Shown one piece after another: positions 4,700-47,385 of a stretch of DNA of 55,136 nt (position 1 is the stretch's first letter; the number at the start of each line of letters is the position of its first letter). The stretch is taken from positions 1 to 55,136 of IMG/VR virus record IMGVR_UViG_3300046004_002451; one strand, 5' to 3'. The stretch comes from a virus (Duplodnaviria > Caudoviricetes). The position numbers were made by a program, and so were the translations under genes. Under the pieces are notes generated by a model that was not told where the DNA came from, did not search any database, and saw nothing but the letters and a program-made list of their open reading frames with translations.

Positions 4700-4731
4700 A
4701 AGCCGCTGCCTTACCGGGCAGCGGCTTTTTT
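4700..4731 (+). terminator. Rho-independent terminator overlapping the integrase stop codon
   Basis: AAGCCGCTGCC-ttaccg-GGCAGCGGCTT followed by a T-run, between convergent genes. Confidence 0.8.
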
Positions 4732-5943
4732 CTTTGGGCTGAACGCCTTGTTGAGAGCCTTCGACTTCGTCGCGTCTTCCAGGTGCGTGTAGATCAGGTT
4801 TGTTGCGTCATTTGAGTGACCTGTGATCATGCGCCGGACCTCCGGCGTGACGCCGGCATTGGCGAGCAGGCTGTTGCAGGTGTGTCGGAGGGAGTGGAAC
4901 GTCAGAGAATTGAAGGAGAGCCCCCTACCCTGCCCTTCGACCTTCCGGCCTTTGATGCCGGCGGCCTTGAGGATCTCCGTGAACTGCGTGCTCAGGCCTC
5001 GGTTGCGGGCGGCGTGCACCCCGGCCAATGAGGGGGCGAGGTAAAGTGAATCCGTCGGTTCCTGCCACAACTCCGTCAGATGGCTCGCCAGCGGTCCCAC
5101 GATGGGGATACGCATTTTCTTCTTCGTCTTCCCCTGACTCATCTCCCATATCCATGTGCCGGGCTGCACGACGATTTGCGTGCGTAGGGCGTTCGCGCAG
5201 TCCGTGAGGCGCTGAGAGGTGCAAAGCCCAAGCAGCGTCACCGTAAGCCAGTCACGGCGCTCCGGCTTCGCGCGCAGATGGCTCAGAAGTCGCTCCACCT
5301 CTGCCGGCGTGTAAGGGTCGCGGGTGTTGGAGTTGTTGAGTTCTCGGGAGATGAGATTCACCGGGTTGCGGGTCGCATAGCCTTCGTCACGAGCCCTCTC
5401 GAAGATTGTCGAGATTGTCGAGGCCGCGATATTCATGGTCGTCGGCTTCAGTCCCTCCTCAATGCCGCTCAGATACCAGTTTTGCAGCATCTCACCGGTG
5501 AAGGACCCAAGCGCCAGCTCCACATCTTTTCCCAGCCACTCGGTGAAGTTATTGACGTAGCTCGTGTAGGCCTTCAGGGAGGAAGCGCTGAGCGTCTTTG
5601 GCACCCGCTTGGCAGCCGCCTTGAGCCATGCCTCTGAGTACGACTTCCAGCTTTTTGAGTCCACCACTTCCCTGTGCCCTGCGAGCCGTAGAATGTCATT
5701 GATGACCTCCACCACGAAGTCGCGTGAGATCCTGGCCGCACCGCTGACACCGCCCGCCGCCAGCGATACCCGCTCAAACTCACGAGCGATCTCCAGAGCC
5801 TTGGCCTCGTCTGTGCAGCGTGTCGATTTCATGGCCTGCTTCCACCGCTGCGCCCTTGCATCCCACACCTGAAACACCGCCGAATAGTACAGCGATTTCT
5901 TGCGACGGTAAACCGCTGCGGGTCGGGCGAGGGGCGGGGTCAT
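4711..5943 (-). CDS. int: Phage tyrosine integrase
   Basis: Catalytic R (SQRLTD), K (GKTKK), HSLRH, GHS and Y (IYTH); N-terminal arm-binding-like and SAM-like regions; start taken at MTPPLARP (5943). Confidence 0.92.
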   Translation of the reverse strand: MTPPLARPAAVYRRKKSLYYSAVFQVWDARAQRWKQAMKSTRCTDEAKALEIAREFERVSLAAGGVSGAARISRDFVVEVINDILRLAGHREVVDSKSWKSYSEAWLKAAAKRVPKTLSASSLKAYTSYVNNFTEWLGKDVELALGSFTGEMLQNWYLSGIEEGLKPTTMNIAASTISTIFERARDEGYATRNPVNLISRELNNSNTRDPYTPAEVERLLSHLRAKPERRDWLTVTLLGLCTSQRLTDCANALRTQIVVQPGTWIWEMSQGKTKKKMRIPIVGPLASHLTELWQEPTDSLYLAPSLAGVHAARNRGLSTQFTEILKAAGIKGRKVEGQGRGLSFNSLTFHSLRHTCNSLLANAGVTPEVRRMITGHSNDATNLIYTHLEDATKSKALNKAFSPKKKAAAR

Positions 5944-6238
5944 GGATGTAATAAAATAGCGGCGAGTGATAATGCCCGTGCTAAAGAATGTCAACAAAGA
6001 GAAAACAGCGTAAAACAAGAAATAAAGATGTAAAAGGCTGGAAATAAGCGCCTTACCAACACACTCCAAAACGCTGCAAAGATGTCAAAAACCCCTTAGA
6101 CTCATATAGGAGATGTCTTTTTAAAAGGCTGTTGCCTGGGTAAATGGGGCGTAAATGGCATGGGTGATAATGTAGGTGCTAAATTTGTGACACCCGTTCG
6201 AGTGTTGCAAATATTACATTAGCTCGCATGGTAGCCGG
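5944..6238. other. Candidate attP / divergent promoter region
   Basis: AT-rich non-coding gap next to int with short repeats (AGATGT at 6026, 6080, 6111; TAAAAGGCTG at 6031, 6122; GTGATAATG at 5966, 6164; GTAAATGG at 6140, 6151). Confidence 0.5.
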
Positions 6239-18498: not shown

Positions 18499-18657
18499 TC
18501 AGGTGGGAATAATCTCAGAAGAGATTTTTAGCAGAGCCTCCTTAATAAGTTCAATCATCGTGATTTTTCGGCGGGTCGCCATCGTTTGCAGCCGCGCGGA
18601 GTAATCCGCGGGCAGCTCTGAAAGTATTTTGGAGGTGACAAGGTCTTCGTGCGTCAT
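18499..18657 (-). CDS. Cro-position small DNA-binding protein (ribbon-helix-helix-like)
   Basis: 52 aa, ELPADYSARLQTMATRRKITMIELIKEAL; first gene of the leftward operon, divergent from the repressor. Confidence 0.6.
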   Translation of the reverse strand: MTHEDLVTSKILSELPADYSARLQTMATRRKITMIELIKEALLKISSEIIPT

Positions 18658-18745
18658 GTTATACAATGTGCATATAGCAGTATGCACAAAATACAAGTGG
18701 TCAACGATAACTTGCACAATGTAGAAAATAAATTATGGTTACGGC
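18658..18745. promoter_or_regulatory. Genetic switch: operator and leaderless repressor promoter
   Basis: Inverted repeat TGTGCATA-n6-TATGCACA (18667-18688); TTGCAC(18712)-16 nt-TATGGT(18734) ends 6 nt before the repressor ATG. Confidence 0.7.
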
Positions 18746-19159
18746 ATGAACACGCAAGCAACTCTAACCAGGTCACAGGTAGAAATGTGGCTGAAACAGC
18801 ACGGCCGAAGCCGCTCTTGGCTGGCAGAGAAGACTGGGTGCGAAGTGGGCACCGTGCATACATGGTTCAGTACCAGGGGGCTGCCATCAGGGGCGCGTGC
18901 TGCCATCGTGGCGCTGATGGCTTTAGATTCCGCCACCGCTGCCTCTGCCAATGCCAATGCCTCTGCCAATGCCAATGCCTCTGCCAATGCTGAACTCGGG
19001 TTGATTGAGTTTACCACTCACGAGTTTGAGCGACTCGAAGCCGCAAGGGCAGCGGTAGGCAGCCCAACCCGGCCGGCATTTTATCGTGACGCAATCATGC
19101 AGTATGTGCATGACATTGAAGCGGCTGATAAATCCGTGGCCGGCACAGTGACGCCGTGA
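18746..19159 (+). CDS. XRE-type HTH repressor-like protein
   Basis: WLKQHGRSRSWLAEKTGCEVGTVHTWFS HTH; ASANAN repeat linker; no S24 peptidase domain. Confidence 0.75.
   Translation: MNTQATLTRSQVEMWLKQHGRSRSWLAEKTGCEVGTVHTWFSTRGLPSGARAAIVALMALDSATAASANANASANANASANAELGLIEFTTHEFERLEAARAAVGSPTRPAFYRDAIMQYVHDIEAADKSVAGTVTP
18941..18990 (+). repeat. 18-bp tandem repeat (about 2.8 copies) in the repressor linker
   Basis: GCCTCTGCCAATGCCAAT x2 plus GCCTCTGCCAATGC. Confidence 0.9.
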
Positions 19160-20994: not shown

Positions 20995-23900
20995 CTATCG
21001 GAGGAGCAGCCCTGGGGCTCGGGCTTTGATACGTTCGTATTCGCGCATAGCGGTGTCGAGGGTTTGGCGCTCCAAGCCGGTGAGGCTAGCTCTAAACTTG
21101 GTTTGCTGTTCCTGCCCGCGAATGATCATCAGCGGGTTCTTGTAGAATAGTAGTTGCTGCACGTCCTTAGCATTCTGGATCGGCGCCCCCATGTCTTTTA
21201 GTTTAGCCTTGATATTCGCGATGGCTGCCAAGTTTGGTGTGTCCTGTGCGAGCACGGCAAATAGGGCTTTGCGGGCGCGGCTCTGCGGCGTGGTGCTGCC
21301 GTAGTCCATGCCCTCTGTGCTTGGCACTCCGTTCTTTTTCCGCCAGTCCTCGGCGATTCGATAGAGGTCGGGGGTAGCATTCCGCACGTCCATACCAAAA
21401 AGGGCACGGCCTACGGCCTGGGTAGGGCTGCGTACTTCGAGCGTCTTGTTAGTGCTGCGTTCGCCTGCATGAAGCAGCGTTGCAAAGCCGGTGCCGCCGG
21501 GCAGGAGTGGAGGCAGCACAGTTTTGGCCACATTATCGGCACGCGCTGCCAATTTCTCAGCGGCAGTCATGTTGTTCTCGACAAAGGTGCGGTCGCCAAA
21601 GGTGTCTTTGCCGGTCATCTGGCTGTAGAGCATGGAGCCGATAGGACCGGCCGCTACGAATGAGCGGAGAGTCTTCTGCCACCAGTCTTCGCTATCACCG
21701 CCTTCGACTCGGTTGCCCATGAAATCGACAAACGGGTGGATGGCGGAGATGTCGAACTGTTGCAGTTGCCCCTGGTCACTACGCACGGGCAGAAGCATCG
21801 AAAACAGCGGCACGCCACCGAGCGGCGTCGGGCCGAGGAGCTTGCCCCCCTTCCCTCTCATGTCACGCTTCACCTGCTCCAGCTCGTCATCATCGAGGCC
21901 CATGGCGAGCGCTGATAGGAATGTGATGAGTGATGGCACGGCCAGGCCGGCGGCGAGCGCAATGGGGCGTTCCTTGAGTGCATTGCCAAAGATGCGGATG
22001 CTTTCACGGTAGAAGCCCAGGAAAGGCATGGCGGTGCGGCCAAGTAGTTTCAGGCTGGCACTGGTGCCGCCGTCAAAGTAGGGGAACCAGTGGCGGACAT
22101 GATCACGCGCGGCCTCGTTGGTCATGCCCATGGCTTTCGCCTTAAAGTAGGTGGCGAGTTTGAAGAGTTCATCCTCGGCCTGATAGAGCGCGGCGATTTG
22201 GTTGTAGCTCTTATGCAGCGGGTTCTTCGCCCATTCAGGCAGCACCTTACCAAAAGCCTTGCCGATGCCGAGCAGCACGTCTGGCTTGCCATCATCAGCA
22301 ATAGTGGCGGGATCGGGCAGGAGTTGGCGGAGCGTCTGGCGCAGTTCGGCGCTGACAAAGTCGGCACCGAGCACGCCCATGTCATAGGCTTCTTGGAGAT
22401 CCCTGCCACCGTTGCGCATGGCGCTGAGTGCCTGCTTGTAGAAGGTCACGTTGCCGGGATTCCAAACACTGGTGCCAGCGAGCTGCGAAAAGAACACATT
22501 GCCGAGCACATTGCGAACGTGCGTGCCTGGATTGAGCACGGTCTTGCCAGTCTTCCACCAGCCGAGGAGTGTGTCATAGAGTTGCAGGGCGATGCCTGGT
22601 GCCTCGACCATTTCGAGGAGTTGGCCGGCGATGTCATCCATCACGAAGCGGCCCGCCAAGCGGCCAAAGCGTGGGTTGTCGGGAATCTCGGTGAAGCCAG
22701 CGACTTGGACATCTGAGATCCATTCAGGCTTGCTGGCCACGAAGTTGAAAAACTCCGCCGTGCTGTTGTCATGCACCATCTGCGCCATGTAGCGCGAGAT
22801 CGAGTAAACCGGGTCCATGATGAGGCCGGCGTGCTCTTGTTCATCGACGCTCAGCGGGGCGCGTTTCTCGAATCGGTAACGCTGGGCGCGTGTCAGTTCC
22901 TTGATGCGGCCTTGCAGTTCGGCATTGAGTTTGGCAGGGGCGCGGAGATCGGCCAGCGTGAGGCCACGGTTGGCTTTGTTGCGGCCTTGCAGCTCGGCCA
23001 AGACATTCCCGAGAATGAAGTCCTCATAGAACGCATCGCGGTGGCCCTGGTTTTTGAAGCGCCATTGATTGCCCTGGTGATTGATGAGCCGGGGTTCACC
23101 GGTGGCGTCTTTGTTTTCACGATCCGCGATGTGCCATGCCGTCGTGCGCTGGGCACCGATGTCTTTGAGCCCGAGGCGGAAACGCTTGGTGATGGATTTC
23201 TCACGCTGCACATCTTCCTTGTAGAAGTGCGGCATGTAACCGGCTTGCAAATTCTCGAAGGTTTCGAGAGACATGCGGCCCTGTTTCACGGCCTCGCGGC
23301 CCTGGTCCACGAGCAGCTCACGCAGGCGCGTGGCAAGGTCTTGCAGGGATTGCGGCAGGGCGCTGAGTGGCTCCTCACCCTTCATGGCGAGGTAGAGTTT
23401 CCGGCGCCACATCGGGTTACTGGCGAACTCCGGCGGGTAGGCGATGTCGGAGAACTTGGGATTGCCAGAGAGCGCGCGGACAAGGTCCATGGCCTTCTGA
23501 CTGCCCACGGCGGTCTTGATCTCCATCTCACGCTTGTGAGCAGCGACCTCACGCGGCAGCACTGAGTCCGGGAAGAACTCACGCTTGAGCGCGTGCGCGG
23601 CTGCCACGAAGGGCTTGGCATTTGGCGCAGACTGCCACTTGGCGACGGCGTCACCGGCTCCCGTGCTGGCGTTAAGGTGCGCAGCGAGGTCGGCGAGCTT
23701 GGCACTGGCGGCGCGGTCCAGGTGGTTCCAGCCGAGGGCGGCGAGGGGGGAGGCTGTTGTCGGAGCCTTCTTGCTTTGGGCAAGAACGGTGCCTTTGAAG
23801 AGGATGTTGTTCGTCTCAGGATTGAAGCGCTGGCTGAGCGGGATGACCTTGCCTGATTCGTCGCGGGTCACGGGGTCGGCGGATTTGATCTGGTTCGGGG

Positions 23901-26900
23901 TGAACGCAACCCAATCGTCCCGGTAAACATTGCCATCCGTATTACTCTCACGCACAACGATGCCATCAAAGCCGAGTTGTTGTAACCTTTCGCGGATTTG
24001 TGATGCGGGTATTTTTCGACTACTGCGGTAATCTTGGAGTTCTTCAAATCCTTCAAACTCCTTTGGATTTTTGATGAACAGAAAAGCATCCGTGACACTT
24101 CCAACTGATGTATCTCCGATTAGAAGATCACCCTTCATCTCCCATTTTTCAGGACCGCCTTCAAAACGATTGGCAAATTCTGCTGCTACTTCTTCCGCGT
24201 TCCCGGCATACTCCGATGAGTTGGATGGGGCCGCAAACCACACGCCAAGATGACGTGTGTGTGTGGAAACCTGATCTGCTGGCACCTTGAAAATCTGAAT
24301 ACCCTTTTGCGTGGTGCCATGGTAGGCGTGCATGGCTTCACCTTTGAAGAGAACAGCACCCGCCTCCTTCGCCGCCTCGTCCACCATGCGCTGAGCCTTC
24401 GCTAAGTCCCCGGCGGCCACGGCCTGCATGTATTCGGCGTCGTTGTTGGCAGGTGCCACGGTGCCTTTGAAAAGCCGGTTGGCCCGGTCGCCGAGTTGCT
24501 GGGACTGTTTGGCGGCTGCCTGCACAATGGCACCAAGGCCTGAAACATTCTTGAGCGTGTCGGTCGTGAGGAGGCCGATGACTGGGTCATTGATGCGGGC
24601 GTTTCCTTGGTGGTCACCGATGTAGTTATCTTCATGCAGGTCGAGCACGAGCCATGGGCGCCCTTTGACGATGGCGACTTGGGCGCGTTGGCCAGCTTTG
24701 GCGTGGGCACGTAGGCTATCAGGTATATCGACGGCGCCTGAGCGATTGAGGGAGATGTCACGGCGCTCCATGCTTCTGCCGGTGTCACTGCCGATATTGG
24801 GCCTCGGTGACATAGGTTGTTTCAGGTAGATGTGGCCATCAGCACCGATGGCGGCTATCTCAGTGGGGGTGCCACCCATGTCAGACATGACGGCTAAGCG
24901 CACTGCAGTTGCTCTAGGGTTCTTAGCCGGTTGGTAAGACCACTCCAAGCGTTTTAGATTGGTATGGCCGACGTGCGGCCAAATACCTCCACTGGGGTTC
25001 TCGGAGAAGTCCTTGAGCTTCTTGTAAATGACGCCGGCTGCATGGTCGAGATAGATCATGGACTCCACGCCTGCATCATTCACGGGCAAGGCACGAATAG
25101 CCTGCTCCTGAGCTTCTGTCAGCACAGGCACACCAAAGGCTTGAGCCAGCTCAGCGGCTAGGCGTGGGCCGGGGCTCCAGTCGAAGTTTGGGCGCGCAAA
25201 GGCACCTCCCTTCCTAAGTGGTCCAGCTTCATTGAGGCGGTCGAAATGGACATCGCGTATCGCTTGTCCTTGTTCAGCGGTAACTCGTGATCCTCGAATA
25301 AACGATTTTCCGGCAGTCCGGCTGTCCAGTTGATTTGTGACTCCTTCATGATCGGTACCATACACCGATTTATTGCTCATTGCAAGGCGCTCGGGGCGGT
25401 TCTCGGGGTCTTCCTGTTCAGGTCGGAGTTCGTAATTGTAAACTTCCTCGTCGGTAAGCCGGCGGTTGTAGTCGAGGTAGCCATGGCGGCTGCCGCCTTC
25501 AGTATGTGCAATCAGCCCTTCAGTAGGGTGCGTGTTAATGCCTGGGGGTCTGGCACGCATTTCATAGCGGTAGCTTTTGGGCGCTTCTGGCAACTTGCCA
25601 TCACGGCCAGACATCAGTGCTTTGATGGCAGAGGCTCGTTCATTATCGGCAGTGACCGGAGTAATCAACGAGGGGGTGAGGCCGAGGACTTCGCTCGGGT
25701 CATCGAGGAAGACGTGGGCTTTAACTTTCTTGCTCCACCTGCCGCCGGCGGATTCGAGGGCGCGGTTCACCTTCTCGTATAGCTTGCGGTCGAGCGTATC
25801 AGGCAGCACGAGCCGGTTAGCGGTGATGACGGCGCTTTCAATGGCGCGTTGCACCTCGGGACTCATGAAGTCGGGATCAGGCGCCTTCATTGGGCCAAGT
25901 GGCTGGCCGTTGACTTTAGGTGGGCCTTTGGGGGCATTCGGGTCCGGCTCCTGGTGAGCCCCGGCCTTTTCAGCAAGCCGGGCAGATACGGCTACGTCTT
26001 CGGCTTCGAGCGCGGCAAGGCGGTCGTGGTCTGGCCAGGCAGTCGCTCTGGAAAGCGCCTCGCGAAGTTTGGCTTCGGCCGCGGTATCGCGGATAATGTC
26101 ACGGTCGATTTGATCAATCGAATCTTGCGCCACGCCGGCTCTGCTGCGCAAGCGGTTGATGAGTCCGGCGGGTCCGTTGAAGCTGTTGCCCCAAGTACTG
26201 GCTGCTCCGTCACTGTCCAGAATGCTGCCGGGGGTGTCCTCACCGATGGCGGTGTGGACCTCGATGAACACGGGCTTGCCGTTGATGTGCATGGTCAGGG
26301 GTTTGCGCTTCTGTCCGGCGCGTTCCATGATGATGCTTTGCTCGCGCAACCAAAGTTCCATTGGCTTGGTGATGCCTTTGAAATCGGGAGCGGCGGTGTC
26401 GATGACCGTGCCGCCAAACTCATAGACGGCATCACCAGAGATGTCGGTTTCCGGGCGCACGCCTTCGGGTCGTGGAGCGGTGCGGACCCATAGCTTTTCA
26501 GCGGCGGCTTTCCTGGTGACTTCCTGGGCTCGGTAGAGCGGCGCGTTGCGCAGACTGGCTTGATAGCTCAAGAGGCGGGATTTGCGGCTGCCGTGCTCGC
26601 TGAGGTGGGAGTCACGCAGGAGGCGGAGATCCTTGATTTCCTTCTCCAGCTCAATCTTGCGGATAAAGTCGAGGTCTCCCAGGGTCCGCGCGGCCATTTC
26701 CGCAAGGTTGACGGCCATCGGGTCTGTAGGGTCGTCAAACACGTCGGAGATGTCCTCTCCCATGAGTAGCTGGGTGATGGCGCGTTGTTTGCGGGCGAGT
26801 GCGCTGTAAATGGCGCTGTCCATGCTGCCCTCGGTGCCGTAGTTAATGATGAACACGGGTTCATTCCAGGTGTCCACGCCTTCCACCTTGGCGGCGTGCA

Positions 26901-29900
26901 TGTTGCCTTGGCGTATGATTCTGCCATTGCGCTGCTCCTGCATGGCAGGTGTGAAGTCACGGGGCGGCATGAGGTGATGAACGGCTTTCAAGCGCTCCTG
27001 CACGTTGACGCCGACTCCGAGTAACTCGGTGCTGCCAATGACAATGCGAATTTCCCCGCTGCTGACTTTCTCAAAGAGCTTGGTCTTTTTATCGTCGGAC
27101 CATCCAGACTCCATTAGGAGGATATGCTCCGGCTTCACGCCGCTGGCGATGAGCTTCTTCTGCATGTCCTTGTAGAGATCGAACTCGCCCGCGCTGCCAT
27201 ACTCGGGGAAAGGGTGGCCGGTGAAGGGCACCAAGTAGTCCATCTTGAACTGGTTGCGCAAATCAGAGAAAATGAGCTGCGTCGTTTTGCGCTCGTGGCC
27301 TGCTTTGTAGATTTCCACCACGCGGCGGATAGCCACGTTGACCTTGCTATCAGCGTGGTCGGGAGCGGTAGGCGAGATGAGACGTGGATCGAGCGCGGCG
27401 GCAATGCCGGCAGCCATGGTCTGAATCGGTGCCGCCCCGTACATTTCCTTTTCCTCCTTGTCGGCGCCCTTCCAGAGTTCACCGACACTTCGCACCCAGG
27501 CGTTGAACTGGTCATTGCTGGGGGTGGTGTCGATAATCTTCATTTCCGCTTCACCGCCGTCGATGGCGGGCACGTCGAGGCCGAGTTTATCATTGCCCAT
27601 CGCCACGTCGAACATGCTGCGAATCATGGTGATGAGTGCCGGCCCGTTCTGGAATTTCACAAAGCGGCTCTCCATCTTGGGAGTGCCGCTCCATGCCATT
27701 TCGGGGGCGGTCACCATCTGGCCAAAGCTGGTGGCGAAGTCATCAAAGTTGCGGATACCATAGTCCTCCAGGATGTCCGGGGCCATGAACTGCATCATGA
27801 TGAAGGCCTCGGCGATGGAGTTCTTCACAGGTGTGCCGGTGGCGAGGAAGATGTTCTTTCCACCGGTCTTCTTTTGCACATCCCGCACCTTCAACATGAA
27901 GTTAATGGCACGCTGGCTGTCTTTAGACGAAGGCACACCTTTGACGCGGCCCATGCGGGTAATGATGGGGAGAGACTTGTAATTATGCGCCTCGTCCATC
28001 AGGATGGCATCGACGCCGAGATCCTCCCAAAATACGGCCGTGTCGGCGCGTTCGGCTAGATCGTTGAGCATCTTTGTCCGGCGCTCTTTGAGGCCGAGTA
28101 GGATGGTTTGCAGATTGCGCACCTTGCTCTCGTCCTTGGTGCGGGTCAGTGCCTCTTTGAGTTCCTGAATCTGGCTGTCCATGTAGTCCTTCACGGCGCT
28201 ATCCTTATTCGAGATGAGGTCAAATTTGGAATGTGGCAGGATGACAGTGTCCCAGTTGCCGGTAGCAATCTTTGCCACGAGCCGGCGAATGTTCTGCTTC
28301 TCGAAGTCCTTGGTCGTAGGCACGAGCACGCGGGCGGTGGGGTAGGCCTGCATGTAGGACTTGGCAAACTGGCCTAGGGTCGAGTTCTGCACCACAATCA
28401 TAGGTTTCTGCGCCATGCCGAGGCGCTTCAACTCGTAGGCCAGCATGATCAGGTTGAATGATTTACCGGAGCCTACTCCATGTGCCATCATGCCACGCCG
28501 GAGCGAGAGGAACCGGGCAAGCACGGCGCGCCGGAAAGGCTTGGTGTGGACGTGGCCGGTATTGAGTCCTGGGAACTGCAAATACTCGCCTTTGTGCTGC
28601 GGATTGACGTAACTGTTGTTCGTGACGTTGAAGGCGTCTTCACTGGCCTGCCAGACTGGAACGGGCGCCGGCGTGGGCGCTCCTGCCAGCTCTTCATCGG
28701 GCATGACGGTCACGGGCACTTCGGAAGATTTGACGAAGGTGACGAAGGCTTGGCGCATCTTATCGAGCGCGTGGCGGGCTGCTGCGGTGGCTTGATGGTC
28801 GAGGGATTTGTCATCGCCTTTACCGTCGTAGATGAGCGGCTCGGTCATGTTGAGCGCGTGCTTCATCAGCGTATAAGGTCCGGCTTTTTCGGTGCCAAAG
28901 TCCTCTGTGGTGAAAAGGTGGGGGCCGTGGAAGTTCCACGAGTTACCCGCCGGCTCATAGGTGACAGTGTCCGTGCCGCCAAGTTGGTCGGCGATGAAGG
29001 CGTTATACACCTCCATAGGTAGCCAGCGCGCGCCTAGGGTCGGCGTGATGCGGCCAATACTCTTGCGCTCTGGCATGGCCTGCGTCAGGGCATCGACGTT
29101 CTTGTTGAACTTGGGATCAGTCTTGGCTGCTTCTTCAGCGGTTTCCAGTCTGGCGCGGACATTGCCGCTGAGGTAGCTTTCCGCCGTCTCGTAGGTGCTG
29201 GTAGCCGGGTCTTCAAACACGTCGGCCTCGGCATCGAGAAGTTGGCGCACGGTATCGCTATCGGTGCGGAGCAGTTGAGCCATGTAAGTCGGCTGCAAGG
29301 TGCCCGTCCATGCAAGGGAGGTTTCCAGTGCCTCGCGGATGTTTTTGGCTGTGGTAGGTGCCTCAATGGGTGGCGTGATGCGCTTGGTGAGGATGTCGGC
29401 TTTCTTGTAGCTGTAGGTCTTCTTGGCGGTCTTCTTGTCGATGGCGACGACTTCATTCTCCAGCGCAGCGGTCAGCGGGTGGGCAGGATCGCCAAAGAGG
29501 AAACTATGCGCGTTCGGATACCGTTTAGAGATGGCCTTGTGTTTAAGGACGTGGGAATCATAGACCACGTTGAGACGGGCGCGGAGTGCATCGAGGTGGC
29601 TTTCCTTGGCGCCTTGCTGAATGGATGCCTCAATGAGTTCCTGGGTGGCTTCATGCACCGTCTTCCACGAGCGCCAGACTTTGACGAACTCGGGGTTGAG
29701 CCCCCAGTCGGCTTCTTCGAGACTGCCATCCGGCTGCACCTCGTAGATTTTGCCATCGCGCTCGATATGGCTGAAAGGCTTGTCGCCTCGGCTGGCGTTG
29801 CCGGCGTTGTTGGCAGCGGGAGCCTGCTGGCCCATGATGTTTTTAGGCAAACCGGGGATCAATGCCTCCAGGGCTTTCATGACATCCATGCCCTCGGGGG

Positions 29901-32900
29901 CTTGGACGGCGTAGGCGCCCCCGCGATACATGGAGCCTTCCAGCGTGTGAGTGCCAAGCACGTTCTGCGGGTGATTGATGAAATACTCGTTCACCATGAT
30001 CGGCGCGGATACGGTGATGCGGGCAGCGCCTCGGTCGCGGGTGTCTTCGCTGGTGATGGGGCCCAGCCGCTCGGCCTCTTTGCGCAAGTCAGCGAGAAGC
30101 TGCCCGTCGCTTTGTTTGAGCGTCACGGGTGCCCGGCCTACTTCTACGAGATCACGCCAGGCCTCGCCCTTGAACGGAGTGCCATCGGGCTTGCGGATGA
30201 TGATGATGTCAGTGGTGACTTCGGTGCCAGCATTGGCCTTAAAGGCGTTATTGGGCAGGCGGAACGCGGCCACGAGATCACCTTTGGAGGCGATGAACTC
30301 CCGCTGCTTGATACGGTTCTGCAAGGTGCCGTCACTGGTGATGAAGGCCACGAGTCCGCCGGGCTTCACCTTATCGAGCGCGTGGGCGAAGAAGAAGTTG
30401 TGTAGGTTGAGATTTGGAAAACCCTTCTTTTTCGGGCCAGTTTGGTGGAAGGGCACGTTGGAGATGAAGAGATCGAGCGAGCCATTCGGCACGCGCGCCT
30501 CCTGGAATCCCATACCGCTGGCTATGCGGGCTGGGTTGCCGCCTTCCTGCTCGTTGACGGTGATTTCAGGGTAAAGTTTGGCAAGCAGGCGGGTGGTGAG
30601 TTCATCCAGCTCTGTGCTTTGCCAGCGGGTGCGGTCGGCGAGGGTGCTGGGCTGCAAGCCGATATAGTGGCCATTGCCGGCGCTGGGCTCCATGGCGCGT
30701 CCGCCTTTGAAGCCGAGATGCTCGACCATCTTCCACATCGCACGGATGACGGGAGCGGCCGTGAAGTGGGCGTTGAGGGTGGACAGGGCGGCGCTGTCGA
30801 ACTCCTCCTGCGTCATCGCTTCCTTGAGCAGTTTATGCGTATCGCGGTGGTTCTCGGACCATGAGCGCAAATAACCTGGCATATAGGTCTTGTCGCTGCG
30901 GTGGTCCCAGTGCCGGCGGATACTTTCCTCGTAGCCTTCGTTGAAGGCTTCTTTGAAAGCACCCCAGCCAGTGTAGGAGGCGAGCACCTGCTTCTCTTCC
31001 GGCGAGGCGTTACGCTGCTCGTCTTCGAGCTTCTTGAGTAGCTTGATTGCGTCCTGATTGGCTTGAATCTTGGCCTTGTTACCGGTGGGAGCGAGGGTCT
31101 CGACAGTGTCAGGCACCTCGAAGTTACGATCGGACGATCCTACGGGAGGTCTTGGCCGGCCGACATTGTAATCCTTGATGAGCACGGCCTTGCCAGTGCT
31201 GTCACGGCCAAAGAATTGGCCAAAGGTATCCTTAGCTTGGCCGCGCGCATTCGATGCCCAATTATGTTGGGACGTTTCACCGTTGCGCTGGATAACAAGG
31301 AAGGGGCCGACTAGACCGTTTGTGTCGCCGGCATGAGGATCTTCGCCATCTGTGCGCAGGCCGGGCACACGGTCGCCAGGGAGGTCTTGAGATTGTCCTT
31401 CTCCGTTTCCGTCAGTTCCAAGTCCGCTAGTTGCTCCTCCACCATCGGCATTAGCTCCGCTTCCTCCGCGGCCTCCTGACTGTCCGGCGTCCCCGAATAG
31501 GGGTCCGTTTCGGCTGAGTCCGTTTCCGGCCATGCCTGTTTGGCCAAATAGGTCGTCAAAGCCGCCGGCTGTGCCAGTAGCTTCTTGAGTCCGGGGTGCG
31601 CGAGTAGGCTGTGCAGGACGTTTGGTAGTTGGTCGGGGTTGCGCATCGGTGAAATCTCCAAATAGGTTGAGCGTCTGAGCCTGCTGCAGCTTCGCCGCAT
31701 TTTGGGCGGGGGTCAATAGGGTGGTGAGATCGAGGCCATTGTTGAAAGAGAAGAGATCGGGAGTGTCATCGACGGCCTTGCGGCCCATCGCGAGAGACTG
31801 CGATTCACGCGGCCGGCCATTCTCTTCGAGGATCTTGACCAGTTTAGCATCAAAAAGGACATAGTTGTGAGTTGGGTTCTTGGAAGCCTCAACCCACCAT
31901 TTACCGCTGGCGGCATCGCCCTCGAAGCCGCGTGGGATGACATGTACTTCGAGATAGCCATCTGCGCGAAGTTGATCGGCGCGTGCTTGGGCTTCTTCAC
32001 GAATTACAAACCCTTCGGTTACATCTTGGATGCGGCTGCCTCCATCGAGGTAGCGGATACCTGGGACACCGAGTTGTGCGAGAGATTCACTCGCCCGTCG
32101 AGCTGCATGTTCAAAGCCTCGAAGTCCGGTGGTTCCACCGGCCAGCATGTCGTAAATAGCAGACCCAGTAATCTGGTCAGATATTACCATTGGGTAGCCT
32201 CTCCGAGCGCCCTCCTGCTTCTGATATTCAAGCCATGCTGCCCGCACTTTTGAGCTTTGCAGAATCACCGGCAAGTCCCAGTCGAGGAACTCGTCCTCAT
32301 CGGGTAGGAGATCCAGGGTGTAGAGGTTGCCGGTAGATAACTCGGTACTGTCAATGAATCGTGCGATGTCTGCCGCTTCGGATTCTGACACTATTTCGTC
32401 TAGGACTTGCCTTTTTAACTCGGCCTTAGCTGATTCTTTATTGCCCCTGTAATAGTTGATCAGATCGGCGGCCCTGCTTGAAGCACTCGAAGAATCAATC
32501 GGATTAGCTTTGTTCTTACCCGCTAGGTTCTCTTGATAACGCTTCGCTGTTTTTACGTTCCTTGCAAAATATAGACCCCACCCATAAGCCTGCACGCCCT
32601 CACCTGTACCAATCTTGTCGAGGCTGAACTCGTCCACCTTGTGCGGGGTGCCATGATACACAGTGCCTTTTTTCAGGATTTGTAACCCTGGTCCTTCCAG
32701 GATGGCGCCGTCTGGCATGACGGTCTGATTGCCGCCCGTGATTGCCTGAGTGAGTGCCTGCTCATCCTCCCATAGATAATTCCAGTTCGCGTCATGTGGG
32801 TCTGTCGATGTCAGTGTCCCGTCTGCGTGCATTGCACGGATGTAACCATCCAAGATGCGGATCTGCACTTCACCCTTGGACTCGTGCTCGACTTGCTTCT

Positions 32901-35900
32901 GATAAGCTTCAGCGGCACCGGGGAATATATCAAACGACGAACTTCCTTCGGAAACGAAGTCATCCCACCCTGTCTGATAGACCGGGTCAATGGAGGTATC
33001 GGCGGTCCATAGTGAAACGCTGCCTTTCTTGAGAGTACTGAACTCGCTGCTCTGAGGTGCATTCCAAGGCCGGCCAAACGCGGTCTTGATATGCGGAGTT
33101 GGTAGGCCGGTGATGCCACGCTCATAAGTGAGGCCATCTTCCAGCGCTGTAGCGCGCTTGACCATGGTAACGGCGGTGCCGGCTTTGATGATGGGCACGC
33201 CTTGGCGCCTGGCGCTGCGTTCAGGACCGTCTGATAGCTCTGCCCAGTAGCCGGGAGTCTTGAGGCGCCCGAGCAGCCCATGGACTCCCTGCTTGCCTCC
33301 GTAACTGCCATCACTGCCAAAGCTGGTGCCTTTGTATCCGTAGATGCCCGGCTTCACCATCGCGAAGGTGACAGGCACTCCAGCGTCATTGAAAACAATA
33401 TCAAAGAGCACGTCTTCGGCGAGAAGCTGGTCGGCGCTTTGGTAAGGGTTGCCCATGCCGTCATAAGTTAGCTTCTGCATGGCCCATACCTGAGGCAGGA
33501 ACCGCTTACGAGCAGGACCGCCAAGGCGCAGTGTGCGCGCGGCATCTGGCAGGGCGTGAGCACCGGTGAGTTCACGCGCGCCCCCGGCCTGCATCATCAA
33601 TTCGTCCAATGTGAGTTGGGCTTGTTCTTGGGTGGTAGGTTGCCGGGATTCCGCTTGATTATCTGCCTGGAATCGCATATCCTTCGACATGAAGGAAGCT
33701 CTTGAAAAGTATCGTGCTCTTTCCGTGGAAGACAGGCGCGCGGCGGATTTATGTGTCCGCCCTAGCGCCAACAATCGGACGATGGGCGAGTTGTTTGACG
33801 CGGGATTTGATTGGGCTGTGGAGGCGGTGGATGAGGCGGTTTCGATTGGCCGTGAGATGCTTGCCTCCGGGTTCACTGAGGCTGATGCGCTGGAGATTGC
33901 TGAGGCGGGTCGCTGACCCATGTGCCGCTCGGCAAAGGTGGCGCGCTTCTTGGTCCATGACCATGATGACCATTTCTTGAAGGCCTCTAGTGCCTTCTCA
34001 AGCCGGTAAGAAGCCGCTCCGTAAAGGGTTGTGCGGCGCTTGATCAGAGCCGGGGAGGCAATGCGTAGCTCTTGGACGATTGGATCAATGTGCGTATCAC
34101 TGTCCTGCACGAGGGAGAGCACGACTTCACCTTCGGCATACTCCATGAAGGGTTCGCCGGCTGTATCGGTGGCGAGTTGATAGCCAAGATCAGCCAATGC
34201 AGGCATGAGCCGCTCGACACTGGCAAGAAGTTGCTCCTCGGTCTGTCCATCCTGCAAGGTGGTGCGCAGGAGATTGTGCGGCACACTCTGACGAGCTGGG
34301 TTCTTAGTGCGCGGTGCGGACACGGCATCTCCTGCCAGTGTTGGCAGGAAGCGCAGGCCTACTTTCCGTGCGGCTTGGCGCATGGCTGGCAAGAATGTCT
34401 CAGCTTGGGTCTTGGCGTAGCCGTGGGCGAACTCGGTAAGTTGCTGGATCTCACGAGGGAGTCCGGGCATGACTTCCATGAGACTCGGGCTGGCCGGCGC
34501 TGGTTGGGGGGCTGACTGTGCAGCACGCCCAAACCAGATTTCAGACTCGCGGGCACCTGCCTCGGGGCTATCGCTGAGGTGAATGCCGTTGTCGATGCTG
34601 TTGAGTTTGGGGTCGGTAAAAAGGTTGTTCCACCCTTCTTCGGCGCCGTTGCCGGCATAAACGATACTGGAACGAAGTGAGGGCTCGTTCTTTGGCACGG
34701 ATGACTTGCCAACGAGGTTGCGGAGTGTGGGGATGGCATCCGCGCGGACCTTGACGCGATAAGCTGCCACGTCACGGCCCTCATAGTAGCCGGTGAGCTT
34801 GGGGAAGAAGCCTTTACCTTTGTGCTCGGCATAATGCTGCTCCATGCGCTCGCTGGTGACACGGCCCTTCCATTTAGCCGAGATGATGCCGCCGTGCTTT
34901 TTGATGAAGTCTTCCAAGATACGTTCACCGTTCATTTCCAGCCCGATTGGCTTGACCAGAAAGACAACATCAGTGTCGGGCGCCGAGAAGAAGCGGGAGA
35001 GATTGGCGCCGGTGGCTTTATCCACCCGGTTCCAAACTGAATTATTGAGGCTGATAGCCTGGTCCACGATCGTGCGCGGCACGCCAGGTAGTTCGACGGC
35101 TTTCTTGCTGGCGAACAAAGCCAACTGCACGGGTGATGAGTCGGCAAAGGTGGCGCGGCTAGCGGTCTGGCGCTCAAGCACGAGATCGTCAGCAGGTTTC
35201 AGGATACTGGTCTCCGGCGCATCAAACATGAATGTCTGACCGAGAGCGCGCTCGGCGGTCTCCAAGGCTTTAGCCTGCCCGGCGGTGAGGGGGGCTTCTG
35301 CTTGTTTTGCGGTGAGGGTGCGGTAGAGCTTGAGAGCGGTCTGCGGGGCGAGCCGCGGCGCCGGCAATTTTGAATCCGCCGGCTGTGCCACTGGCATGGT
35401 GACAATTTTCCGCTGTTGCCTACCGAAGAAGAAACCGACATCACTATGCCGAAGCTTGCCTTTAGTAATGGGCACATCGAGCCCATCAATCTCAGCTACG
35501 ATTTTACCGCCATAGTCAGAGACTTCTGTGAGTCGAAGCTCTACTGGAGTTGCAAAGTTGAGCGCCTTATTGAGTGCGCGAAGGCCGGCAGAATACCAGT
35601 TTGGCCCCGAGAACCGTTGGCCGCTGTTGAGGGAAGCAAGTAAATTGGCCTTGCTTGGCACATCAATGATTTCATCGGTCGGCTTGACGGCTTTCGAGCC
35701 CATGCTGAGCCGGTTATACTCGGCAGGGTCCATGCCTTCGGCCCATGTGTGCCTCTTGGATGGTGCTGCGTTGTTATTCGGGTAGCGTGCTGCAAGCGCT
35801 GCCTGTTTCTTGAGTTCTTCGGGCGTGGCTTTTTCTGCCGCTGCTGCATCAGGTTCGGCTTTTTTCGGCCTCTGGATGTCTTTGATGAGACCTTCGGCGA

Positions 35901-38900
35901 GGCGAAATGCGGCGAGGGGGCGCAGAGATAATTGCGCGACAAGAGCTTCACTGAGTTTGGAGGCATCAAGTAAGCCAGTCTTTTTCTGGATGGCCTTGGC
36001 GGCGTCCAAACTACTGAGAGCACCGGCCGCCGGAGTGGAAACCGGAGTGGAAACCGGAGTGGAAACCGGAGTGGAAACCGGAGTGGAAACCGGAGTGGAA
36101 ACCGGAGTGGAAACCGGAGTGGAAACCACCTTGGAAACAAAGCGCTCTGCAACACTGAAAGTCCTGCCTCCAGGCGTGATAGCCGGGTATGACCATGCTT
36201 GGTCTTCCTTGTTCCAAACAGGTTCACCAGTCACGGTAAGATTACCCTCAGAGCGGTAAACATCTGAGAAAATCAAACTGCCTTTAGGAAGGTCATGCTT
36301 TGGCGCTGGGTGTCCAGGGGCCGGCGCGGCTTCCTCGTTGCTTGGTTGTGCGGGAGGCGCCTCCACGGCAGGGGCAGCTTCCTGAGTGAAGGTCTTACCT
36401 GTAGCGAGGGCGAAGAGTTCAGCTTTGGTTGGGCGCGGCTCGTTGCCAAATAGGCTTGTCTGTTTGGGGTCTCCGGCTGCGTCTATGGCTTTGGCGTAGC
36501 GGTCGAGCGCGGCTAGGAGCTGCTTGGGCTTCCGGCGGTGATCATGCAAAGCTGTGACGAGGGTTTTCTCAAAAGCCGATGGTGCCTCACCAATGCCGGC
36601 AAGGGTCTCCTGTGCTGACCATGATTCTACAGTATCACCTCGGGTTTTGATGTCCTGGTAAGTTGCGAGTGCTTTGGCCAGCTCTTCTGTGATGCTGAGC
36701 GGATAGAGGGCGCCGGCGCTGATGCGGCTATTCTGCTCGGCAAAGCGTGGTGCAATCGCGATGAGGGCATTAACCAGATTCCTGCCTTCTCCATTGATGT
36801 CCTCGGTAAGGGTGCTGAGTGCGCCTAGTGTTTCTTTGCTGTCGCCATAGGCATAGACAAAGAGCGCATTACGCAGTCGGCGCAGCCCGGTTTGCGAAAG
36901 ATTGCCTTGGGCGTCGATGATTGCCGGCCTTTCAGCGGGTGGAACAATGTCGCTGATGAAGCCGCGAATGAACTCGGCATTGGCTTGAGTGAATACTTCA
37001 CCCTCTTCATTCGGGACAAAGTTCTCGAAGTGGTCCGGGACAATCTGCTTAGCATCAATCTTGGCCTGCTCAATTTCCCGCTTTGGTGCGATCGTGCTGA
37101 CATTGGCAGATAGCACGAATGCTACACGGTTCACCGGCGTCTTGCGAATCCGCACGAGCACCGGGTTCTTAATTTTACCGACTTCGGCGGCATCGAGGCC
37201 AAAACTTGCAGCCTTCGCAAGGAGCGCTTCCCGATATGTGGCGGCTGCTGGTGACTGATTACCATGGGCACGCCGGGCACCCATCATTCGGCCATTGCCT
37301 GACTCAACGACTCCATCATCCCCGATAATTGGCGCACCATCGCCGACTCCATTACTGGCGCTGAGGCGGTCCAAGTTGAGGTTCTTCGCGATGTCGATTA
37401 CCTGGGATTCACTGCCGGCGCTGGTGCGGTCGCGCGGCTGTAATTCCTGAGGGTATTCAGGATTGATACGCCCATCATCCTTATTCGAGATTGTGAGGCT
37501 GTTCACATCGACAACGGCCCATTCGTAATCAATGGCATCGTTCGCGTCGGTATATGCGGTGCCGCTGGTGCCGGTGACGGGCTTGAAATCAGCGCTCGCC
37601 GTGGCTTTTGTCTGTGGTAGCGGCGCAGCGCCAGCCAGCACCGCTGCCCGGTTGTCGGTGGTAGTGTCCACTCCCGTCACTTTTCCGGGCTTGGGTGGGA
37701 CATTATTTGTCTGACCCCCTGATATTTCCTTCGTAGTTACCGCGGCTTTTGCCGCCGGCCGCAAAGTCGGCATCGAGGCCAGTCGGGACGGGTCGCCCTG
37801 GCTACGAGCTTGAAACTCAAGCACGAGTTGGCCGATTTCATCCACCATAACGTTCAACTCGTCTTGCAGTTCCGGGCTGGTTTGGCTGATGAGATCCTTG
37901 AGCGCTTGGCCAAGATCCTTAAGCATGTCCATCAGCCACTTGGCGAGGCTCTTATCCTGAGCTGCCGCTTCGGAGACCTGCCCGGCAAAATGACGGTCCT
38001 GGACCAACATGCGCGCGAACTCGTGCATGAGATGCCATTGCCGGCCCGCGCTGAGGTCGGTAGGCATCTTGGCCGGCTGTTTCTTGTTGGCGATGTCGAT
38101 GGCGTGATAACTGCTCCAGACCTTCTGGCGAAGTGCTGGAGTGAGTGATTGCCAGCGTTTGACCAATGCACCACGGCCATATTTCTCGGGCTTACCCTGA
38201 GCAATTTTAAGGACGGCTGCATGAATGGCTTCCTCCACAAGTGATGCGGTAATGCCTTCATTTACATTCGTGATATTCCTCATCTCGTGGATGAGAGCGC
38301 CAAGATTGATAGCAAGCACCATGTCGCCATTCAACTCCTGGACCGCTATGGCATCCCCGCCAAGGATAGCTTTTGCTGAGTCGCCCAAAGCAAGCTTTGA
38401 AAATAGGAGATGGTTCGAGGCAATGGCCCTCTCCAGTGCGTTGAGAGTTGCCCGTGCCGCCTTCCTGCTTTCGGCCGGCAGAGTAGTGAGTGCTTGTAAC
38501 CGCGCGCGCGCCCAGGCTGCATGGCGCCGGAGATCGGCCGGCCGGTCTGGCGTGACGGCTACGGTTTCAGGTTCAGTGGTATCATTTGATACCGTCGAGG
38601 CTTCGACTACGGGGCTGCCATCCGGGTTGACCTTACCTTTGGTAAGTTTGCCATCGTTGGCGGCATTCTCTTTCTCGGCGAGCCATTGCAAGAAATGTTT
38701 CTGGCGGGCTGCTGCGGAATCAGGCGCCAATTTGAGCTTCCGGCTTTTGAGCATGTGGGCGATAGCGGCATCGAGCCGGCCACCGAATGACGCAACATAC
38801 TCATCGGCTAGGGCTGCCGCCTCTTCTTGGCTGTAGGGTCCAGAACCGTCCCTGTAGAGCATTACGGCAATCTGCTCACTGCGTTCCTGCTGTGGGTAAG

Positions 38901-41900
38901 ACAGGGTAGGTGGGGTTTTCAGGCTGGGTTTGGCCTTGATCACGGGTCGCTCAGCGACGTTTGAGCGTGACTCTGGCGAGTCGCTCACGGGTCGCTTAGC
39001 GCCTTGGTCGGCTGGCTTACTTGGCGCTGAATTGACGTTTTGCGGAGACAGTTTTGCATCGAGATCAACCGGCGCTGTGAGTGGATCACTTTGGGAATGG
39101 GCAGGTGATAGAGACCCGGTGATTCCAAGCGCCCGCAAAATCTTCGGGTAATCCTTGCTGACGGCTTGCTCCATGTAGCTTTCACCGACGACTCCTTGAG
39201 TTGCCACAAGATGCTCGGCCACTTTGGCTGCCTCTTCCTCAGTCAAACCGAGATCGGCGAAGTGTCTGGTAAACTCCTCGACACGCAGAGCCGCGGGAGA
39301 TTGCTCTCCCGCAGCCGGCGCCGGTGCGTTTAGCAGCGCGTTCCCTTGCCCTTGGCGCCCTTCTTGGCTTCCTGGCTGGTTTTCATGTGTGGTTGTGCTT
39401 TGTGGGGTTTCCGGGCTATTCGCCCCCGGTGTGGCGGTCGGCTGGGCTGACACAGGGGTTGCGCCATGATCGGCTGGAATGGCGGCAGCGACTTCGGGCA
39501 GGTGTTCGGCAAGGATTGCGCGATAGGCGGGTGCAACGGTGATGTTGCCGGCAGTATCCACTTCAAGCACGGGCGGACCAGCATAGCCTTTGAGAGCTGT
39601 AGGCGGTGCATTGAGGTCTGTCTGTCCGTCTTTGTTGCGGCGCGTCCAGCCGGCTGCGTTGAGTTGTTCCTCCTCCAGGTCAGCGGCGCTGCCACCTTGC
39701 GCGACGGCGAGAGCGGCGCTGGCTCTTGCCTGCATGGGTGCCACTTCCTCCGGGCGCACGGTCGGATGGTTGGCCAGTTGGTCGATGGCACTCCAAGCTG
39801 CTGCTGCCACTTCTGGCCTAAGTGCTGGGTCCATTTGGGGTGCAGTAGCTACCGGGGCAGCGCCGGCCGCTCCGGGTTGTGTCGCGTCACTGCGCTTCAT
39901 GCCAGTCTCGCGGATTCCCTGAATACCTTCACCCATGCCACCCAGGCCGAATATGGCGATAGAAAGCTCTGGCAACGACTCAACAAACTGGGCGAGCGCT
40001 TGGGGCACACTCTGCCCGGTGCCAACGGCTGCTGCGACTGTGCTGAAAAGTTCGTCGCCGATTTCCTCCGGCCACTCCTTGAGCCCGCCTTTGACGAACT
40101 CCTTACCGATATACCCCGCGCGCGCCATCTGGCTCGTGAACTGCTTCTTGAAAGCCTCCTTGGCAAGGTTGGGCGTCACGAGCAATTTTGTGATACCTTG
40201 CGCGCCGGTGAGAGTAGTCAGAAGAGCGGTGACACCGCCGGAGAGAATCGAGGGGAGTTGTGCTTGTCGGAGTGCCGTGGCATGACTCATCTCCGGGTTC
40301 TGCTGCCTGAGTGTGGTGTAAATGTCCGCGATTTGAGCCCCGTACGTCTGTGCTCCGCCGGCGACTGCAGAGCCAGCAACTCCGGCCCGAACTATGGAGG
40401 CGGTCGCTTTTGCTGCCTGGGCGGGTGTGGTGGCGCCGCGCAAAGCAGCGGCGAGGGCTGGCAGCATCTTGGCTCCAAAGCCTGTCCTGGCAAATAGGGT
40501 AAGGCCAAGTTGTCCCGCGCGAGCGCCGCCAAAAGCTGGGATGAGGCTGGGCACGAGGCGGCCGAACTGTCCCACACTGCGCAGAGCCAAGCCTTCGGCG
40601 GCACCATGGATTTGTTTATCCAGCTCCATGAGCTGAGAACGCTCATTGAGTGCCTGGGCGCCCTTCATGGCAGTTTCGCTGCCGGTAATGCCGGCCACGA
40701 GTCCCAGCGCCTGGGCGCCAATATCATCGACGCCTTGAGCCAGGCTCATCAGGAGTTGGCGGGTAATTTTGCCGGCGGGCGTAGCGCTGTCTTTGAGTGT
40801 GTCGGCGTAGCGTGCTGCCTGCTCTTCGAGTGCTACGTCCTTGGGCTGTGACTTCTGGAAAGCCAGCCATCCCTCGTCTTGCAGCTTGGAAAGAGTTTCC
40901 AGCGATTGCCGGCCATAGTTGGCACGAATATCCGGCTGAACTGCCATAGCTGCCCGTTTGGCTTCCGGGCTGGCTGGTGCGGCTTCGACGGCTTTAGCGT
41001 ATTCTGCTGGATCGGTGATCTGTGGGTTAATGAGCAACCCACCATTGCCAAGGATACGGTGTTGACGCTTATCGCCGCGCACCTCGTGCATGAACTGTGC
41101 AGCACCGGTGCCAGGTCCAAAGTCCTCGCCATGCTTGCCTTGAATGCTGCTCCAGTCATGTGACTCGACATCGTTCAGGATACGATCGGCTTCCTGTTCG
41201 GTGACTCCAGTAGCTTGCGCCAAATTCTTGCGCGCTTCGAGGAATAGATCGCCGGCATGAGCTTTCAGTGCTGGATTCTCTGCCAGCTTGGTCTTGATAC
41301 CCATGTAAGCAGCCTGAGCGGCCGCATTGGTCTGCACGCCTTGAGCGTGTGCCTGCTCCAGGCGGCTCTGAGTATCCTGATTGAGTGCTTCTGCGGCTGC
41401 TGCGCGCTGCGGGCTACCCTCGGGGTATTGCTCCAAGTCTGCGGCGCGGTGGGCGTGCTCCTGCTCGATGGCAGCGCTTGCGGCGCTGCTTTGCTCCATT
41501 CCTGGAATGAAGCTCTGAACTGCTTTCACATCGCCGGCGCCCTGCTTTTGTTTTTCTTGCACATTTTGGGCAGCTTCATTTCTCAAGTTCACCTCGCGGC
41601 CGTACTCGGCTGCATCAATCTCCAGGAGCTTGCGCTGTTTCTGGTGCTCAGGATCGGCTTGGAGTGTCGTGGTCTGCGCTTGTAGATCGGTCAACTTTTT
41701 CCAGATTGGGGCGTGCCATGTGCTGCCATCGCTGGCGGTCACGAGTTCGCCCGCTGGGATACCGCGCTGCTTGGCCGCATCATTTTCGGCGGTGAGTGCG
41801 GTCTGTTTGGCCTGGGCGTCGATGTAAGGCGCCTCAAGGTCGGCTTGTCGCTGTTGCAGTGTGGCAGCGCTGGCATTCAGAGTTTCATCGGTCTTGTCGA

Positions 41901-47313: not shown

Positions 47314-47385
47314 GGTGGTGGTCTGCACCGGTGGCTGCCTAAAATTTCTGGTGTCAAATACAGATTTAGGTGCCCACCGTGGCGA

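Follow-up and report, generated by a model that had tools for sequence, protein, structure and literature searches.

Does the coding sequence of a giant phage gene also spell, in a second reading frame, a small gene with a promoter of its own? This question is raised by the virus record IMGVR_UViG_3300046004_002451 of IMG/VR, a stretch of 55,136 nucleotides (nt) that we refer to as the window and whose numbering is used throughout. In the window, a single open reading frame (ORF; 20995..42843, minus strand) encodes a polyvalent protein of 7282 amino acids (aa). Within it, on the same strand, a 63-codon ORF (25158..25349) lies in the +1 frame behind a promoter-like sequence and overlaps the N-terminal part of a kinase-like module of the giant protein. 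On comparative sequence evidence, this nested ORF is probably a genuine overprinted gene expressed from a leaderless transcript.

The preliminary description of this locus reported TTGCAA, a 17-nt spacer, TATGGT and, 7 nt further on, an ATG that opens a 63-codon ORF in an alternate frame, and all of this is present on the minus strand as described. The −35-like TTGCAA (25380..25385) is spelled by main-frame Leu-Ala-Met codons, an instance of the linker motif LA(K/M), and the −10-like TATGGT (25357..25362) by Tyr-Gly codons. The ORF extends from the ATG at 25349-25347 to a TAG stop at 25160-25158; its frame is +1 relative to that of the 7282-aa ORF, of which it overlaps residues 5832-5895. An alternative upstream ATG at 25361, inside the −10 hexamer, would give 67 codons. 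The encoded peptide begins MKESQINWTAGLPENRLFEDHELPL and is hydrophilic, with an isoelectric point of 6.8 and a mass of 7.1 kDa. The same description placed the ORF directly before the kinase-like domain. This needs correcting: the kinase core starts only at about residue 5901, and residues 5832-5895 take in a conserved N-terminal extension of the domain. Since the conserved module begins at about residue 5838, the nested ORF overlaps its N-terminal part.

The evidence that carries our reading is the behaviour of codons in relatives. The comparison loci came from viral contigs (L003, L004, L005, which equals L009, and L006), from metagenomes (L007 and L008, the latter identical to L006 over the region printed), from a Verrucomicrobia metagenome-assembled genome (MAG; L001) and from a genome of the MAG's order (L043, a 6073-aa ORF). 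Their DNA was fetched by peptide patterns from elsewhere in the domain, so the nested region did not bias the choice of homologues. Scans of viral contigs with a degenerate DNA pattern and by alignment of the nested peptide yielded no contigs beyond those already compared. The +1 frame is open and carries an ATG in the window, L001, L003, L004, L005, L006, L007 and L043. An open frame alone is weak evidence, because 25% of windows of this length in the giant gene are open. The codons themselves are far more constrained under the ORF than around it. At sites where the window and L003 encode the same residue, the codon is identical in 39 of 48 cases under the ORF and in 207 of 489 elsewhere; for L003 and L007 the counts are 29 of 39 and 150 of 399. 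The sliding profile of the window against L003 peaks at 31/32 at residues 5830-5871, with other sliding windows across the alignment of ~1300 codons at ~20-60%, even where protein identity is higher. Differences distribute over the three codon positions as 10:10:10 under the ORF (60 codons) versus 57:49:137 in the rest of the domain, and codons identical in three sequences number 18 of 22 in the core versus 62 of 258 outside it (Fisher p 9e-8). Main-frame synonymous sites under the core of the ORF (residues 5837-5871; 25231..25335, minus strand) are under strong purifying constraint. Window and L003 also differ by multi-base changes within single codons (TTT to TCG, CAA to TCC), with 30 neighbouring synonymous sites untouched, which argues against recent gene conversion. 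That the ORF should accompany the kinase domain was borne out as well: an ATG-started +1 ORF is found in 7/7 close polyvalent loci, and in stand-alone relatives too.

The promoter-like sequence recurs in position rather than in letters. Upstream of the conserved block, sequence is barely alignable between homologues; a σ70-like site stands in register 5-10 nt upstream of the +1-frame ATG in 6/7 polyvalent loci, with differing hexamers. These sites are TTGCAA-17-TATGGT-7-ATG in the window, TTGCAA-16-GATGAT-5-ATG in L003, TTGACC-17-TATACT-7-ATG in L007, TTGCCA-17-TATACT-10-ATG in L005, TGGACA-17-TAGAAT-6-ATG in L006 and TTGACC-17-TATCCT-7-ATG in L043. The remnant locus L001, which is not independent of the window, has TTGTGA-17-TATGAT-7-ATG. 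For L007, L005 and L006 the site at the nested ORF is the only one that scores at least 10/12 in ~3.9 kb, and for L043 it is the only promoter-like site of any score. In 3000 codon shuffles per locus, a promoter-plus-ATG composite landed in the 50-nt target window 0-8 times. The Tyr codon within the −10 is TAT in the window, L001, L005, L007 and L043, though TAC is the commoner Tyr codon of the giant gene (58 TAT, 94 TAC). A second promoter-like site with a +1 ATG is present ~1.4 kb upstream of the kinase module in two loci, TTGAAG-17-TATGGT-7-ATG with 58 codons at L003:53-91 and TTGAAG-17-TATCTT-10-ATG with 62 codons at L004:137-178; the main-frame contexts of the two show no apparent homology.

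Two further branches of the domain family, in Verrucomicrobiota, repeat the arrangement. Stand-alone genes of ~300 aa (n = 10) each have an ATG-started +1 ORF, mostly of 73-79 codons, which begins 8-47 nt upstream of a D..TG motif. Main-frame third-position divergence in these genes is 0.32-0.52 under the overlap and 0.56-0.73 downstream, and in columns 40-60 it falls below first-position divergence, as would be expected if the stronger constraint acted on the +1 frame in that stretch. The products of this frame in the stand-alone genes form a well-conserved family of 57 database proteins, all unnamed or labelled 'hypothetical protein', with the core LPLTDxER..LHPGNRFRLMFGQPLLP. In the second branch, a class of 1300-1400 aa, a perfect TTGACA is found in 10/10 loci, 9/10 have a +1 ORF that is 67-78 codons long, four loci have the full composite of promoter and ATG, and third-position divergence is also lowered under the overlap, with a weaker signal. 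The window-type peptide itself matches nine database proteins of 48-85 aa that were called by independent gene finders. The domain is present in 29/401 sampled genomes of the MAG's phylum and in 87/401 of its order, mostly as ORFs of ~300 aa, and database records with stand-alone pairs of kinase and small ORF are labelled Prosthecobacter and Verrucomicrobia. In the stand-alone loci L014, L015, L049, L051 and L052 the start often reads xTGAATG, a weak main-frame GTG or TTG start overlapping the +1 ATG by 4 nt, and in L014 the stretch from the upstream stop to the D..TG motif lacks any canonical start codon in the main frame.

The locus in the Verrucomicrobia MAG (L001) is a deletion mosaic that joins sequences corresponding to 25422-24973, 23605-23437 and 6643-6111 of the window at 86-89% identity. 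The main frame is broken at the junctions; L001 has retained the promoter, in a form with a better −10, together with an uninterrupted 67-codon ORF. The junction 23602/24996, with 11 extra letters, also occurs in contigs of two other lake-water runs and is therefore not an artefact of a single assembly (cross-run contig matches were drawn from four DNA runs). Inside the ORF 9/192 positions differ from the window, versus ~14% in the flanks; six of the nine changes are at +1-frame third positions, numbers too small to weigh. Another piece of the kinase-like domain (G001:C233:5161-5835; L010) lies at the end of a different contig of this MAG.

A number of observations weigh against an overprinted gene. 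Taken alone, the window offers an ORF and a promoter match that are no better than chance: the promoter at 25385 scores 8/12 to consensus and so goes unlisted in a scan that demands 9/12; that scan (at least 9/12) returns 5 sites in 20 kb versus 6.0 expected; 1793 of 7219 63-codon windows of the giant gene are open in the +1 frame, with 35 stop-to-stop +1 runs of at least 70 codons; and the giant gene has one promoter-plus-ATG composite versus a mean of 1.47 in 200 codon shuffles. Among the relatives, L004 has the ORF and ATG without a promoter-like site, and the distant polyvalent locus L016 has no promoter-like site. The −35 is spelled by main-frame LA(K/M) in the window, L003 and L005, and hexamers of L007 and L043 are spelled by VDP and GY(T/P); because recurring main-frame residues spell some of the hexamers, we count three to four independent solutions rather than six. 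The constraint also has its bounds. Residues 5872-5895 have, by subtraction, 2/10 identical codons, and the last third of the ORF is weakly constrained. The window and L004 share 8/21 codons under the ORF versus 98/243 elsewhere, with no synonymous conservation between the clades, and within the L004/L005/L006 clade the synonymous peak is not unique. The peptide has no family in Pfam or PHROGs and no match in a protein atlas, and its predicted structure is of low confidence, with a predicted local distance difference test (pLDDT) of 63.8 and a predicted template modelling score (pTM) of 0.25. No σ70-like site was found in a scan near the stand-alone starts, where the consensus may not be that of the host. 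Window-type peptides show no detectable homology to the stand-alone small-protein family (hhalign probability 0.17%); judged from these sequences, the family conserves the arrangement and not a recognisable peptide sequence. A search for sequencing runs that contain this DNA listed no RNA run. Finally, the antisense frame is open too in the window, L003 and L007, without a conserved ATG. An antisense ORF was rejected on that ground and because L001 has a stop in it, and a programmed frameshift into the +1 frame was set aside since it explains neither the promoter nor the conserved ATG.

There are three other explanations for these observations. The one that survives best, which we still regard as unlikely, is that the conserved block is a nucleotide-level element and the open +1 frame a by-product. 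Such an element could be a recombination joint at which the kinase cassette is swapped between polyvalent genes, a site on the DNA that a protein binds, or the functional 5' portion of a sense RNA transcribed from the internal promoter. The block is ~100 nt long with diverged sequence on both sides, the domains upstream of it differ between homologues, and a contig of another run matches 25243-25336 only and is unlike the window beyond either end. Flat codon-position differences fit non-coding constraint equally well, the poor fold of the peptide would be expected, and cassette-like small ORFs adjoin kinase-bearing polyvalent genes in Verrucomicrobium, where recombinational variation was suggested (PMC5512222). 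However, a nucleotide element leaves unexplained why a +1 ATG follows a promoter-like site by 5-10 nt in 6/7 loci and why stand-alone relatives have a conserved +1 protein with third positions more conserved than first ones. The multi-base codon changes beside untouched synonymous sites are likewise unlike recent gene conversion. RNA folding z-scores of −0.65, −0.58, −0.37 and +0.49 are no better than shuffles, compensatory changes were seen in 0/25 predicted pairs, an Rfam search of the block gave no match, and its k-mers do not recur in the phage beyond chance.

A second explanation, to which we give considerably less credit, is that the internal promoter serves mainly for expression of what lies downstream in the giant gene (kinase, ART and C-terminal region) separately from the full-length protein, with the nested ORF acting as a leader or coupling ORF that matters through its translation and not through its product. 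A scan of the minus strand found no terminator-like site around where the nested ORF ends, so transcription may continue past it; all four close sequences have identical GTG codons at main-frame residues 5905 and 5907; and the xTGAATG overlap of stand-alone genes suggests frames that compete or are coupled. Yet a mere leader would not freeze the synonymous sites of ~35 codons, nor would it conserve the amino-acid core seen in the stand-alone family, and, read by eye, the sequence after the nested stop has no Shine-Dalgarno-like element and no conserved in-frame ATG. The last explanation is chance: a giant gene that is GC-rich would happen to contain an unremarkable alternate-frame ORF behind a weak resemblance to a promoter, neither of them with a function. 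It draws on the share of open windows, the composite count and the 8/12 score given above and is very improbable indeed in the face of the synonymous-site constraint, the positional conservation relative to codon shuffles and the recurrence of the pattern in two more branches of the family.

We thus return to the overprinted gene, for which both the transcription start and translation are deduced from sequence. In this model, the linker that follows the DarA_C domain (main-frame residues 5756-5809; 25417..25578, minus strand, by Pfam) and leads to the kinase-like module would have a σ70-type promoter embedded in its codons. Transcription would start at or within a few bases of A25349, and a leaderless or near-leaderless mRNA would begin at the AUG of the 63-codon +1 ORF. 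Its translation would yield a small soluble protein of ~7 kDa, the core of which would share its bases with the N-terminal extension of the kinase. A separate promoter would allow the small protein to be made independently of the late operon that includes the giant gene, and its nested position would keep recombination from separating it from the kinase module.

The overlapped module (residues 5838-6129; 24457..25332, minus strand) was delimited by HMMER, alignment and fold and consists of the N-terminal extension and the core from about residue 5901. The extension, LDxxTGxxSFIxGSRVTxEQGQAI, accompanies the kinase core in all relatives. An HMMER search with residues 5810-6160 matched 77 proteins at E ≤0.001 and 12 at ≤1e-30, mostly proteins of 5400-7000 aa (hits were seen at 5408-7022 aa) and some stand-alone ones of ~300 aa. 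The three motifs on which a Ser/Thr-kinase-like assignment had first been based (AGVESMIY, DLHEDN and INDPVI) all occur in the main-frame translation. The AlphaFold2 model (pLDDT 81.4, pTM 0.77) has the N-terminal extension as confident strands and a helix before the core. In a VIA-align comparison with 48,161 chains, 157 reached Z of at least 5, the best 7.8, over approximately model residues 92-310; 29 of the 50 titles listed say kinase, pseudokinase or phosphotransferase. Most of the remaining titles among those listed we take to be kinases as well. The effector kinases OspG and NleH1 scored Z 6.4 and 6.3, and since values under 8 are middling, the kinase-like assignment holds at the level of fold only. 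Foldseek gave no row at E ≤0.001. Its best kinase rows were NleH1 (probability 0.93), NleH2 (0.89) and OspG (0.85), with HopBF1 also present, and the best target-normalised template modelling (TM) scores in that search were those of the minimal effector kinases NleH, OspG and HopBF1 (159-175 residues; 0.41-0.52). In an alignment of 10 sequences (A2), G116, E118, Y131, K132 and Q200 are invariant and D259, N264, D268 and D277 nearly so; going by the motifs VYK, DLHxDN and INDP, these columns would be the residues of ATP binding and phosphotransfer. A Pfam scan of the kinase segment matched no family and a profile search of PDB sequences with it gave a best E of 0.26, so we class the domain as kinase-like by fold and assign it to no Pfam kinase family. 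Iyer et al. 2017 (PMC5512222) describe a polyvalent-protein kinase clade with a kinase-like fold in polyvalent proteins of Verrucomicrobia prophages, with stand-alone versions too, marked by a conserved Gln, by a Glu close to the ATP site and by a C-terminal part that is reduced. Judged by our model and alignment, the overlapped domain fits this clade, and the fold and the published description together back its kinase-like identity.

What might the small protein do? A functional link between the nested ORF and the kinase domain is plausible from their tight physical coupling. Tentatively, the small protein may be a cognate binding partner of the kinase-like module, as an inhibitor, antidote or regulator, although we hold this to be clearly less probable than the existence of the gene. 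The one argument that it acts with the kinase is its obligate linkage to the kinase module in three branches of the family. A predicted complex of nested peptide and kinase-like module scored 0.00 in two runs in which controls were not folded, and is evidence neither way. A wider and rather speculative extension of the idea is that every branch of this minimal-kinase family, in phage polyvalent proteins and as free-standing genes of Verrucomicrobiota alike, overprints an antidote or regulator on the N-terminal extension of its kinase. This would make a one-locus effector-immunity module that recombination cannot split, and in prophages expression from the small protein's own leaderless promoter could protect the lysogen from its own kinase or from a kinase that a related phage injects.

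The proposal that the nested ORF is expressed in lysogeny goes back to a likeness between its promoter and a second one in the window. This look-alike, TTGCAC-16-TATGGT (18712..18739, plus strand), stands 6 nt before the ATG of an ORF at 18746..19159, which encodes 137 aa with an N-terminus that by eye is helix-turn-helix-like and with an (ASAN)n low-complexity stretch. The resemblance (TTGCAC-16-TATGGT-6-ATG) is real. The name of a phage repressor promoter goes further than the databases do, for neither Pfam nor PHROGs matches the ORF and the label 'repressor' stays unconfirmed. The pattern TTGCA-N15-19-TATGGT occurs twice versus 0.08 expected, in a count whose pattern was defined post hoc. 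At 18499-19159 an AT-rich spacer that bears three TGCACA-type repeats separates divergent ORFs, and this region is likely an immunity switch. Operator-like TGCACA repeats flank no part of the nested promoter, unlike 18650-18720. It is thus by resemblance to the promoter of the helix-turn-helix-like ORF, and by that one pointer, that the nested ORF might be expressed in lysogeny.

Embedded genes are familiar from phages, among them Rz1 in Rz of lambda and, in PhiX174, B within A and E within D. As in these cases, the ORF described here is a complete small +1 ORF inside a larger gene on the same strand, with both frames under selection. It differs from them in its host, a 22-kb gene for a multidomain virion effector; in its start, which is apparently leaderless and served by a separate promoter; and in that cellular, stand-alone relatives of the overlapped domain show this overlap too. 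The lambda cI repressor is translated from a leaderless transcript made from PRM, and as there, the −10 lies ~7 nt before the ATG; the helix-turn-helix-like ORF at 18746 shares both this geometry and the TATGGT hexamer. Unlike PRM, the promoter here is inside coding sequence and would drive an out-of-frame ORF. In mqsRA, an antitoxin promoter lies within the toxin gene (PMC6918082). As in mqsRA and in the effector-immunity pairs of polymorphic toxins, an internal promoter would express the small partner independently, whereas in those systems the partner gene lies downstream without overlap and here it is overprinted on the codons of the effector domain. Embedded genes and leaderless transcripts are therefore already known. 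A small set of targeted literature searches turned up no account of a nested gene in polyvalent proteins or in this kinase clade; the text of PMC5512222 contains neither 'overlapping' nor 'internal promoter' and does not describe the nested ORF.

The 55-kb record encodes an integrase (4711..6069, minus strand), a single-stranded DNA-binding protein and a portal protein (45145..47427, minus strand), downstream of which the giant gene lies, and DNA similarity searches of phage and plasmid collections gave no match to the window. Pfam finds ddrB-ParB, NDK, two ART-PolyVal, helicase C and DarA_C domains in the 7282-aa protein, and by this set it is a polyvalent protein as described in PMC5512222. 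The protein also contains an eight-fold VSTP tandem repeat. In it and its homologues a linker motif of the type RL(F/A)xxxK recurs at domain boundaries, with RLAMSNK ahead of the kinase module and RLFKGTV behind it; these motifs might be candidate processing sites. Two further composites of promoter and ATG lie on the plus strand, opposite the late genes: TTGATT-17-TATCCT-5-ATG with a 75-codon antisense ORF within the giant gene (33655-33916), and TTGCCA-16-GATGAT-10-ATG with 82 codons antisense to the gene just upstream of the giant gene (42960-43246). In the bins 23768-23901, 24304-24437 and 25242-25375, the depth of contigs from other lake metagenomes is far above that of neighbouring bins; these deep bins are short blocks common to many other elements, and the bin 24304-24437 encodes the motif AEYMQAVAAGDLAKAQRMVDEAA ahead of an ART domain.

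Gene finders suppress overprinted genes, which therefore seldom come to notice in bacterial viruses, and annotation pipelines miss this nested ORF or label it a hypothetical protein. The nested gene sits in a class of giant, virion-delivered effectors with domains that presumably act against host defences. Should the small protein control or neutralise the kinase, the locus would represent a new wiring of effector and partner, with one DNA, two frames and a separate promoter, and this would explain how the module can be shuffled between phages without loss of its partner. If cultured strains carry the stand-alone pairs, they would offer a tractable system in which to study the pairing.

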